Assembly (NCBI GenBank): GCA_943332445.1
Contig: CALQPL010000001.1
Location: 1-24,062 of the forward strand
Direction: 5' to 3'
Source of the DNA: Bifidobacterium breve
Lineage (GTDB): Bacteria > Actinomycetota > Actinomycetes > UBA12327
DNA: 24,062 nt
The notes under the pieces were generated by a model. That model had not been told where the DNA came from. It did no database searches and was given only the letters and a program-made list of their open reading frames with translations. The translations under genes and the position numbers were made by a program. This document shows, one piece after another, positions 12,335 through 20,229 of this stretch. Within the stretch, counting starts at the first letter, position 1. The number at the start of each line of letters is the position of its first letter.

Positions 12335-12365
12335 TCCGGGGCGCCAAGTCACTTGGCGCCCCGGA
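12335..12365 (+). terminator. Perfect 15-bp inverted repeat after tuf (U-tract-less terminator or mRNA 3' stabiliser)
   Basis: TCCGGGGCGCCAAGT-C-ACTTGGCGCCCCGGA, 4 nt after the tuf stop, followed by CCATCC rather than poly-U. Confidence 0.7.
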
Positions 12366-17697: not shown

Positions 17698-17734
17698 GTC
17701 CGTTCCGCCAGGCTCGGTAAGAGAACCAGCAGAC
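17698..17734 (+). promoter_or_regulatory. Compact structured element upstream of rplN (candidate three-way junction)
   Basis: GTC/GAC, GTT/AAC, CC-GCCA-GG and CTC-GGTAA-GAG, directly before SD AGGAG. Confidence 0.35.
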
Positions 17735-17749
17735 ACTTCAGGAGTAATC

Positions 17750-18118
17750 GTGATCCAGCAGGAGTCGCGGCTTCGCGTCGCCGACAACACCGGTGCCAAG
17801 GAAATCTTGTGCATCCGCGTTCTCGGCGGTTCGGGTCGGCGTTATGCCGGTATCGGTGACGTCATCGTCGCCACAGTCAAGGACGCCATCCCCGGTGGCG
17901 GTGTGAAGAAGGGTGACGTCGTCAAGGCAGTCATCGTTCGCACCACCAAGGAGCGTCGTCGTCCCGATGGTTCGTACATCAAGTTCGACGAGAACGCTGC
18001 CGTCATCCTCAAGGGCGATGGTGAGCCTCGTGGTACCCGCATCTTTGGTCCAGTCGGCCGTGAACTTCGCGACAAGAAGTTCATGAAGATCATTTCGTTA
18101 GCGCCGGAGGTGCTCTGA
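17750..18118 (+). CDS. rplN: 50S ribosomal protein L14 (GTG start at 17750, 122 aa)
   Basis: [17 protein letters not shown]...FDENAAV...[20 protein letters not shown] at 17740-44. Confidence 0.99.
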
Positions 18119-18459
18119 TGAACATCAAAAAGGGCGACCTCGTACAGGTCATTTCAGGACGCGACAAGGGTCTCCAGGGCAAGGTCATTGCTGCCTTCCC
18201 CGAGACTGACAAGCTCCTGGTGGAGGGTGTGAACCGCGTAACGCGTCACACCAAGGTCGAGCAGACGCAGTTTGGTTCCAAGCAAGGCGGGATCATCACC
18301 ACTGAGTCTCCGATCCACGTCAGCAACGTCATGTTGGTAGACCCCGAGACCAAGAAGCCCACGCGCGTTGGCTTCCGCAAGGAATCTGTGGAACTGCCTA
18401 ACGGTGGCACCAAAGAGCGCAGCGTGCGAATTTCAAAGCGAACCGGTAAGGACATCTGA
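18118..18459 (+). CDS. rplX: 50S ribosomal protein L24
   Basis: KOW motif [16 protein letters not shown]...VEGVN...[14 protein letters not shown] overlap with rplN. Confidence 0.99.
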
Positions 18460-19019
18460 TGACTGACACTTCTAACTCACCACGTTTGAAGCTTCGCTAC
18501 CGCGAAGAGATCTCGCCCGCTTTGCGCGAAGAGTTCTCTTACGCCAACGTCATGCAGGTACCCACCGTCACCAAGGTTGTCGTCAACATGGGTGTGGGTG
18601 AAGCCGCTCGTGACTCCAAGCTCATCGATGGCGCTGTCCGCGACCTCTCGGCGATCACCGGCCAAAAGCCGACCGTGACAAAGGCTCGCAAGTCCATCGC
18701 GCAGTTCAAGTTGCGTGAAGGAATGCCCATTGGCGCGCACACCACCTTGCGTGGCGACCGCATGTGGGAGTTCCTGGACCGCCTCTTGTCGGTAGCCCTT
18801 CCTCGTATTCGTGACTTCCGTGGCTTGTCTCCCAAGCACTTTGACGGTCGCGGTAACTACACCTTTGGTCTCACCGAACAGTCCATGTTCCACGAGATCG
18901 ATCAAGACAAGATTGACCGAGTTCGCGGAATGGACATCACCATCGTGACCACGGCCATCAATGACGACGAGGGCCGGGCACTGCTTCGCCGCCTGGGCTT
19001 TCCCTTCAAGGAGAACTGA
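18459..19019 (+). CDS. rplE: 50S ribosomal protein L5
   Basis: KVVVNMGVG...ITGQKP...FKLREG...LPRIRDFRG...[13 protein letters not shown] overlap with rplX. Confidence 0.99.
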
Positions 19020-19020
19020 T

Positions 19021-19206
19021 ATGGCAAAGAAGGCCCTAGTCAATAAGGCAGAGCGCAAGCCGAAGTTCAAGGTTCGCGGCTACACCCGATGCAACCGTTG
19101 CGGTCGTCCGCACGCTGTGTATCGCAAGTTCGGCTTGTGCCGTATCTGCCTTCGCGAGATGGCACACCGCGGCGAACTCCCCGGCATCACTAAGAGCAGC
19201 TGGTAA
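19021..19206 (+). CDS. rpsN: 30S ribosomal protein S14 type Z (61 aa, Zn-binding C+ form)
   Basis: MAKKAL...RCNRCGR...GLCRICLRE...PGITKSSW, with a CxxC-x12-CxxC motif. The ORF-track start at 18961 is not the real start. Confidence 0.99.
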
Positions 19207-19212
19207 CTACCA

Positions 19213-19248
19213 CTACGACGAAGGTCCCTGCGGGGAAACCACGACGAG
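19213..19248 (+). promoter_or_regulatory. Candidate uS8-binding operator hairpin (16S helix-21 mimic) upstream of rpsH
   Basis: AGGUCCC-UGCG-GGGAAACC: G-C, G-C, U-A with two bulged A, C-G x3, UNCG loop. Lower stem CG-A-CG/CG-A-CG. Confidence 0.55.
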
Positions 19249-19269
19249 AAAGGCCTTGAGGCCAAGCAC

Positions 19270-19674
19270 ATGACCATGACAGACCCGATTGCGGACATGT
19301 TGACCCGCGTCCGGAACGCAAACTCTGCGTACCACGACGTAGTTCTCATGCCATCAAGCAACATCAAGACGCACGTCGCCGACATCCTCAAGCGTGAGGG
19401 TTACATCGGTAGCTGGAGCGTGGAAGATGCTGAAGGCGGCGTAGGCAAGACCTTGCGTCTTGACCTGAAGTACGGCCCCAACCGCGAGCGTTCAATCGCC
19501 GGCATCAAGCGCGTCTCCAAGCCCGGTCTTCGCGTGTACGCAAAGTCCACCGCACTTCCTAAGGTCCTTGGCGGCCTAGGCATTGCGATCATCTCGACCT
19601 CGTCCGGTCTTTTGACTGACCGACAGGCCGCTAAGCAGGGTGTAGGCGGAGAAGTTCTCGCCTACGTCTGGTAA
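19270..19674 (+). CDS. rpsH: 30S ribosomal protein S8
   Basis: [17 protein letters not shown]...[10 protein letters not shown]...[14 protein letters not shown]...GGEVLAYVW. Confidence 0.99.
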
Positions 19675-19689
19675 CGGGAGGTCATCGAA

Positions 19690-20229
19690 ATGTCACGTAT
19701 TGGACGTATGCCGATCACCATTCCTAACGGTGTCGAAATCAACGTTGACGGCCAGGAAGTCACGGTCAAGGGTCCCAAGGGAACTTTGAGCGAGATCATC
19801 GTTGAGCCCATCAAGGTTGTTCGCAATGACGACGGATCCATCGGCGTGGAACGCCCCGATGACGACCGCCGCAACCGTTCACTTCATGGTCTATCGCGCA
19901 CCTTGATCAATAACATGGTCGTCGGTGTCACCGAGGGCTACAAGAAGACGCTCGAGATTGTTGGCGTTGGTTACCGTGTGGCCGCCGCTGGCAACAACCT
20001 TGAGTTCGCTCTTGGCTTTAGCCACCCGGTCATTGTTGAAGCTCCTGAAGGAATCTCCTTCGAGGTGGAATCACCCACTCGCTTCCACGTCAGTGGGATT
20101 AACAAGCAGCGCGTGGGCGAAGTATCCGCCAATATCCGCAAGTTGCGTAAGCCTGACCCTTACAAGGGCAAAGGCGTGCGTTACCAAGGTGAAGTCGTTC
20201 GCCGCAAGGTCGGAAAGGCGGGTAAGTAA
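19690..20229 (+). CDS. rplF: 50S ribosomal protein L6
   Basis: MSRIGRMPI...VKGPKGTL...LGFSHPV...[21 protein letters not shown]. Confidence 0.99.

Follow-up and report, generated by a model that had tools for sequence, protein, structure and literature searches.

A candidate uS8 autoregulatory operator resembling 16S rRNA helix 21 in the leader of rpsH in the class Actinomycetes and some of its relatives

The window, i.e., the whole stretch of 24,062 nt analysed here, spans the str-S10-spc run of ribosomal genes. Within it, rplN, rplX, rplE and rpsN are joined to each other by 1-nt overlaps (TGATG, the form found at the rplX/rplE junction) or by a 2-nt gap (Table 1). With the genes from rplN to rpsN so tightly joined, the 62-nt spacer between rpsN and rpsH stands out as the sole sizeable break in the cluster. 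The product of rpsH in the window is a standard uS8 that matches the PDB uS8 chains of the mycobacterial ribosome with an E-value of 4e-63, and it retains both the S-T-S tripeptide that contacts RNA and the Tyr residue in RVYAKS, whose roles have been established for this protein (PMC4176348). Promoter and terminator prediction on the + strand of the rpsN-rpsH spacer returned none. Contigs from RNA libraries of three freshwater metatranscriptome studies run continuously from rpsN through the spacer into rpsH; they are compatible with co-transcription without proving it, as such contigs carry neither transcript ends nor expression levels. As to provenance, near-identical copies of the region 18900-19700 of the window are present in metagenomes of lakes, drinking water and sediment from many studies, as well as in six metatranscriptome runs from fresh water, and the organism is a small-genome freshwater actinobacterium.

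Table 1. Genes and RNA features of the rplN-rpsH region, in coordinates of the window (core residues with their E. coli 16S rRNA numbering)
Feature	Position	Strand	Remarks
S8-like hairpin, rpsQ-rplN spacer	17705-17732	+	A17710; by last two digits, pairs G11-C27, G12-C26, C13-G23, U14-A22, C15-G21; A24/A25 bulged; loop GGUAA; lower stem CCGCC/AGCAG
rplN	17750-18118	+	
rplX	18118-18459	+	
rplE	18459-19019	+	start reads AUGACUGACACU
rpsN (zinc-type uS14, 61 aa)	19022-19207	+	stop codon 5 nt 5' of P1
Whole candidate uS8 operator	19213-19248	+	lower stem P1, asymmetric internal loop (S8 core), distal stem-loop P2; minimum-energy fold; R1 match
P1, 5' strand	19213-19220	+	CUACGACG; A19215 bulged; A19218 opposite A19244
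S8 core, 5' side	19222-19226	+	AGGUC; A19222 = A595, G19223 = 596, G19224 = 597, U19225 = 598, C19226 = 599
P2, distal stem with UGCG loop	19227-19234	+	variable part
S8 core, 3' side	19235-19240	+	GAAACC; G19235 = 639, A19236 = 640, A19237 = 641, A19238 = 642 (bulged), C19239 = 643, C19240 = 644
P1, 3' strand	19242-19248	+	CGACGAG; final three bases open the purine tract
Purine tract	19246-19253	+	GAGAAAGG; consensus GAGARAGG; each position conserved in 52-68 of 71
Hairpin 2	19252-19263	+	GGCC-UUGA-GGCC; includes the GG of the tract and a second GAGG
rpsH (uS8, 134 aa)	19270-19674	+	proposed repressor and first regulated gene
rplF	from 19690		

The initial annotation of this DNA had drawn attention to a hairpin in the rpsN-rpsH spacer, which it took for a uS8 operator imitating helix 21 (h21) of 16S rRNA. 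All the base pairs that it listed are present in the sequence and equal the predicted minimum-energy fold: when positions 19205-19275 are folded with ViennaRNA, the element is both the minimum-energy and the centroid structure (-16.4 kcal/mol). Denoting positions by their last two digits, the lower stem P1 comprises C13-G48, U14-A47, C16-G46, G17-C45, the mismatch A18.A44, C19-G43 and G20-C42, and the core consists of G23-C40, G24-C39 and U25-A36, with A37 and A38 bulged, A19222 unpaired, and C26-28 paired with G33-35 around the UGCG loop. The stability of this fold is unremarkable (z = -0.87, with 36 of 200 shuffles being as stable), and a search for the bare motif AGGYC-N3-30-GRWACC was set aside as uninformative, its 150 matches in the 1.17-Mb genome being fewer than the 216 of the reversed control. 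Two further exact AGGTC..GAAACC matches occur in the window itself, inside rpoB and fusA. Given the modest z and the commonness of the bare motif, the hairpin alone proves nothing, and the evidence is comparative. The same two observations are all that speaks for a chance hairpin in a GC-rich spacer, a reading to which we assign practically no probability and which is already refuted by the conservation of this position across dozens of families with compensatory changes.

To trace the element, a covariance model (R1) was built from the elements of 29 relatives with short stems. In the window, R1 has a single match, at 19210-19254 (52.7 bits, E = 1e-13), and the whole 1.17-Mb genome likewise yields a single match (E about 5e-12). 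Among 40 other genomes of the class, representing 39 families, 29 have a match, and the best match lies 10-35 nt 5' of rpsH in every one of the 29; three of these (G172, G177 and G179) are left aside in sequence-level claims, which rest on the other genomes. In two genomes, weak second matches of R1 (E about 1e-3) were considered as extra copies and rejected, since they lie antisense inside protein-coding genes and are thus best ascribed to chance. When loci were fetched by way of the S8 protein, 78 of 80 actinobacterial loci were found to carry AGG[U/C]C ... G[A/G][A/U]ACC at 22-31 nt before the rpsH AUG; one of the two exceptions has a C in place of the unpaired A and the other is cut by the end of its contig. 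Loci with the element include those of Streptomyces, Rhodococcus, Microbacterium and Bifidobacterium, and some of the sampled genomes have Mycobacterium-like 16S rRNA. In Microbacteriaceae, the element comes directly after rplE; its persistence before rpsH where rpsN is not the upstream gene indicates that it tracks rpsH rather than rpsN.

About a quarter of the sampled families lack an R1 match, implying that control of this kind is not universal. Inspection of four genomes missed by R1 revealed AAGUC/GAUACU in two, AGGCC/GGAACC in a third, and in the fourth a spacer of only 8 nt that leaves no room for the element. More generally, the element is absent from lineages with spacers of 8-25 nt before rpsH. 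In the other classes of the phylum, the spacers are mostly 10-25 nt and devoid of the element, with several families showing AGGC(N)/(N)GAACC variants in longer spacers. Under strict filters, R1 found 0 matches in about 140 genomes of these other classes, a figure that undercounts, as direct reading of 40 other-class genomes recovered variants in several families. Taken together, the candidate element is distributed over most of the class Actinomycetes, with further occurrences in some other classes of the phylum. Hence, the initial annotation, in ascribing it to 'this lineage', was right about its presence here but not about any peculiarity of the lineage.

Several individual loci show departures from the common form. 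Two actinomycete loci (L171 and L173) carry before rpsH AAGUC/GAUACU, which are the exact letters of E. coli 16S h21, and in L173 the distal part has shrunk to one pair with a UCCG loop. In a metagenome-assembled genome of Pseudonocardiales (L043, 1053-1093), AGGCC-UUCG-GGAACC lies 121 nt 5' of the ATG indicated by the protein match, reflecting either a longer leader there or an insertion. Three loci from other classes of Actinomycetota (L094, L095 and L112) have just 5' of rpsH a distinct conserved GGAAGU(A/G)C-[stem]-G(N)AACC, which resembles the S8 core with an imperfect fit; this leader may be a further variant.

In the alignment of 71 elements made with the model, which also contains one stray weak match, the proposed partners pair in 84.5% of the cells, versus 36-46% when the partners are slid by 1-3 columns, and the covariation score is 0.361 versus 0.147 for shuffles, with none of 500 shuffles reaching 0.361. 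A MAFFT alignment, which was fitted to no model, gives 81.5% paired and a score of 0.378 versus 0.156; all these pair counts lean towards the structure, because the sequences are mutually related and two of the three counted alignments were fitted to the model. The five inner pairs of P1 covary, with 3 to 15 sequences per pair changed on both sides, and the position of its A.A mismatch is occupied by C-G in Streptomyces and A-U in Bifidobacterium. The pairs of P2 also covary, having changed on both sides in many sequences. The distal stem can be as short as 3 bp with a small loop or, as in Streptomyces and Kitasatospora, contain inserts of 50-70 nt; the element as a whole measures about 36-100 nt. 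Of the lower stem originally proposed, these five inner pairs stand, whereas the outermost C13-G48 and U14-A47 show no covariation and, though conserved in many relatives, fail to pair in roughly one third to one half of these. Likewise, the tetraloop that had been classed as UNCG-type is present here as UGCG but is not conserved in relatives.

In contrast to these drifting stems, the core is nearly immutable. As read from the model-based alignment, which was used in place of an automatic parsing of core variants that misassigned some leaders with long inserts, position 595 is A in 69 of the 71 elements (C in one, G in one), 597-643 is G-C and 599-639 is C-G in all 71, and 642 is A in all 71. 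The remaining positions vary within narrow limits: 596-644 is G-C in 69 and A-U in two, 598-640 is U-A (53) or C-G (17) in all but one element (the single column 640 having A in 54 and G in 17), and 641 carries A in 58 elements and U in the other 13. Aligning the spacers of relatives and building a covariance model, the check put forward at the outset, thereby recovered an AGGUC/GAAACC core that is both conserved and covarying.

This pattern can be set against what is known of uS8 recognition. The features of the S8 site are A642, a G597-C643 pair with base 641 beside it, and an internal loop of odd size (PMC4176348). The 595.(596-644) triple is A.(A-U) in E. coli 16S rRNA and spc mRNA and G.(C-G) in Thermus, and position 641 is free, being U in rRNA and A in spc mRNA (PMC4176348). 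The E. coli operator itself combines an invariant core with a drifting distal stem (PMC3616713). In the element before rpsH, A19238 takes the place of A642 (A in every aligned element), G19224-C19239 that of the G597-C643 pair next to a variable 641, and A19222 that of the unpaired purine 595 beside a Watson-Crick 596-644 pair, the correspondence of the latter two being judged on sequence; the closing pairs 598-640 and 599-639 are also in place. Across the alignment, the positions that S8 would read are frozen, and those at which change is tolerated (641, 596-644, 598-640 and the distal stem) vary or covary.

A 16S gene was sought in this 77%-complete metagenome-assembled genome and is absent from it, and the 16S rRNAs of relatives were used to read h21. 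These have G595.(C596-G644), G597-C643, U598-A/G640, U641 and A642, and the mRNA core departs from them in having A where they have G at 595, G-C in place of C-G at 596-644, and A in place of U at 641. Thus, the mRNA and the rRNA share a functional core, with the former not being a letter-for-letter copy of the organism's own rRNA. The proposed mimicry of h21 therefore holds for the core and strand topology, but actinobacterial h21 itself presents a different 595.(596-644) combination. With this qualification, the best explanation for the rpsH hairpin is that it represents an mRNA copy of the uS8 site of h21.

The neighbouring genes encode several other RNA-binding proteins, namely uL5, uS14, uL6, uL18 and uS5, any of which, or a dedicated regulator, could in principle be the ligand of an operator at this position. 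To our knowledge, none of these five recognizes a loop of this type. Nothing that we found points to another ligand, and the invariant and variable positions agree one for one with the published uS8 site, leaving a protein other than uS8 as a very improbable candidate.

A second hairpin of the same general form lies before rplN, in the rpsQ-rplN spacer. This arrangement, GUUCCGCC-AGGCUC-[variable stem]-GAGAACC-GGCAGAC, recurs in 15 relatives at about 25 nt before the start of rplN; its partners are paired in 85% of cases versus 29-39% when slid, and four pairs have changed on both sides. It occurs in about half of the actinomycete families examined and was not found in the Mycobacterium-like genomes examined. 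The R1 search of the window did not report this hairpin, which indicates that it belongs to a sequence family distinct from that of the rpsH element. Each of the two tightly coupled gene blocks is thus headed by an S8-like site. There is no third S8-like copy in the tuf-rpsJ spacer of the window, which holds an unrelated hairpin. The latter, 3' of tuf and 5' of rpsJ at 12335-12365, is a perfect 14-bp hairpin (CCGGGGCGCCAAGU-CAC-UUGGCGCCCCGG; z = -4.78) followed by no U-run, and may be a transcript-end or stability element. Where the initial annotation envisaged a single, relocated operator, its site before rpsH is supported, but the second site before rplN makes it probable that there are two operators rather than one that has moved.

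The stretch between the rpsH element and the AUG is itself organized. It begins with the purine tract, which is likely to be the rpsH Shine-Dalgarno sequence, and continues into hairpin 2, for which the role of a structured spacer may be suggested. Hairpin 2 is predicted in 38 of 48 distinct leaders, its 5' arm always opening at the GG of GAGARAGG, and its arms covary (GGCC/GGCC, GGGC/GCCC, GGC/GCC and GGUUCU/AGAGCC); from its end to the AUG there are 0-7 nt. Leaders without hairpin 2, i.e., those of Microbacteriaceae and some Mycobacteriales, have AAAGGA 8-10 nt before the AUG, a normal distance for a Shine-Dalgarno sequence. We also considered a structural switch, whereby S8 would lock a helix that hides the ribosome-binding tract, and rejected it: the operator folds in the model even without protein, and locking it leaves the accessibility of the tract unchanged. 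Repression, if any, is accordingly expected to be steric, by displacement or entrapment of the 30S subunit, and not by refolding.

These features permit a mechanism to be outlined. When uS8 is in excess over free 16S rRNA, it would bind the asymmetric internal loop, comprising the unpaired A, the two G-C pairs, the bulged AA and then the U-A and C-G pairs. The 3' strand of the bound helix would merge, 22 nt before the AUG, with the purine-rich tract of the ribosome-binding site, and a 30S subunit would presumably be blocked or trapped on rpsH. The closely spaced rplF and rplR, and probably rpsE, rpmD and rplO, would then be expected to fall through translational coupling. The sister site before rplN would probably extend uS8 control to rplN-rplX-rplE-rpsN.

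The principal rival to this scheme is a conserved mRNA structure with another job, i.e., a processing or stability hairpin that splits the halves of the spc transcript, or a ribosome platform at rpsH, with its likeness to the S8 site being coincidental. The long spacer requires independent initiation of rpsH, the conservation of hairpin 2 and the purine tract implies constraints on the leader beyond the S8-like loop, and the folding model shows no structural switch, all of which would suit such a role. However, a stability hairpin needs no invariant bulged A with an adjacent G-C pair and an unpaired A opposite, and it is precisely these that are invariant as the surrounding stems drift. Moreover, the same internal loop recurs with different stems before rplN, and uS8, the product of the gene that follows, is the one protein known to recognize such a loop (PMC4176348). 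We therefore regard this alternative as unlikely. By our assessment, the hairpin is probably an operator at which uS8 controls the translation of rpsH and of the genes coupled with it; the conservation of the core, its position before rpsH and the lack of an E. coli-type site at rplE all bear out this part of the initial annotation.

Much more tentatively, and with more doubt than confidence, a broader scenario may be entertained. Here, uS8 would control the whole actinobacterial spc cluster via two h21 mimics, before rplN and before rpsH, each heading a coupled block. Operators with the rRNA topology before rpsH would be widespread and possibly the ancestral bacterial solution, with the rplE site of E. 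coli being a derived, permuted relocation.

The spc operon is the longest of the ribosomal-protein operons, and the feedback that S8 exerts on it is a classic textbook example. That feedback has so far been described only for E. coli and its relatives, and according to a 2024 review the regulation of spc outside the gamma-proteobacteria is unknown, with phylogenetic studies not having advanced (PMC10931766). The element before rpsH offers a concrete candidate answer for a major phylum. No S8 leader from outside the gamma-proteobacteria was found in the literature that we surveyed, including Fu et al. 2013, Eckert and Weinberg 2020, Yao et al. 2007, a Streptomyces transcriptome paper and the 2024 review, though subscription journals may hold one. 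At the gathering score, Rfam 15 has no match in the window, and a scan of 19150-19330 at E<=10 yielded nothing pertinent, a weak match to the Edr frameshift signal (E 6.6) being dismissed as noise. Thus, the search for an existing family that had been advised returned none, and the belief that no actinobacterial S8 leader had been described agrees with both the literature surveyed and Rfam 15. However, the classical S8 operator of E. coli (the K-12 rplE start, L197 5320-5470) also hits no Rfam 15 family; the library has no model for it, and hence the Rfam negative reflects a gap in the library and not dissimilarity. On balance, the hairpin is probably a hitherto undescribed operator through which uS8 would regulate its own synthesis in the class Actinomycetes and some of its relatives.

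For annotation, it constitutes a candidate new RNA family, for which R1 is already specific. It would also present a case of the same protein-RNA recognition being reused at another place and with another strand topology, and is in this respect relevant to the origin of such regulators. As the element is short, with clear predictions for loss-of-function and compensatory mutants, a direct test is feasible in Mycobacterium smegmatis, Streptomyces coelicolor or Corynebacterium glutamicum.

With respect to known systems, a close parallel is 16S h21 itself (E. coli 595-599/639-644), with which the element shares the strand topology, an unpaired purine on the 5' side and two bulged bases on the 3' side, the pairs 597-643, 598-640 and 599-639, the invariant bulged A642 and a three-base asymmetric loop. 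In contrast to h21, it is situated in an mRNA spacer, has unrelated flanking helices, presents A.(G-C) as its triple rather than the A.(A-U) of E. coli or the G.(C-G) of Thermus and actinobacterial 16S rRNA, and has mostly A, not U, at 641. Correspondence also extends to the gamma-proteobacterial S8-interacting RNA (Fu et al. 2013, PMC3616713; crystal structure 1S03), which shows the same internal-loop core, A at 641 (GAAAC), two bulged adenosines and a variable distal helix. It also parallels other rRNA-mimicking leaders, e.g., those of S15, L1, L20 and S6:S18, in which the ribosome-binding region of an operon carries an mRNA imitation of the rRNA site bound by one of the operon's own proteins. 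None of these other leaders concerns S8, and the study that reported 20 such candidates (Eckert and Weinberg 2020, PMC7247131) names S8 nowhere but among its references.

A further comparison is with the spc operator of E. coli. As fetched from K-12, it reads AUGGCGAAACUG ... CAUGCAAGUCCCUCGG and contains, as the initial annotation states, the loop GAAACU together with AAGUC. It is a circularly permuted h21, with GAAACU at +6..+11 and AAGUC 70 nt later, at +80..+84, whereas the element before rpsH is not permuted and reads AGGUC ... GAAACC. The E. coli site spans the start codon of rplE and reaches into the coding sequence, such that it is almost entirely coding; the actinobacterial element is non-coding and lies two genes further down, in the rpsN-rpsH spacer. 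As also stated in the initial annotation, 596-644 is A-U in the former and G-C in the latter. The window has no E. coli-type GAAACU/AAGUC site, including at the start of rplE (AUGACUGACACU), where comparison with the E. coli sequence shows the arrangement to be lacking; as stated in the initial annotation, rplE overlaps rplX by TGATG. Conversely, R1 has no match in the spc operon of E. coli. With R1 blank there and no E. coli-type site here, the two are to be seen as analogues and not as members of one family, and they are probably of independent origin. Yet they converge on the same presumed ligand, uS8, and on the same presumed logic, that of translational repression spreading to further genes of the operon by coupling.
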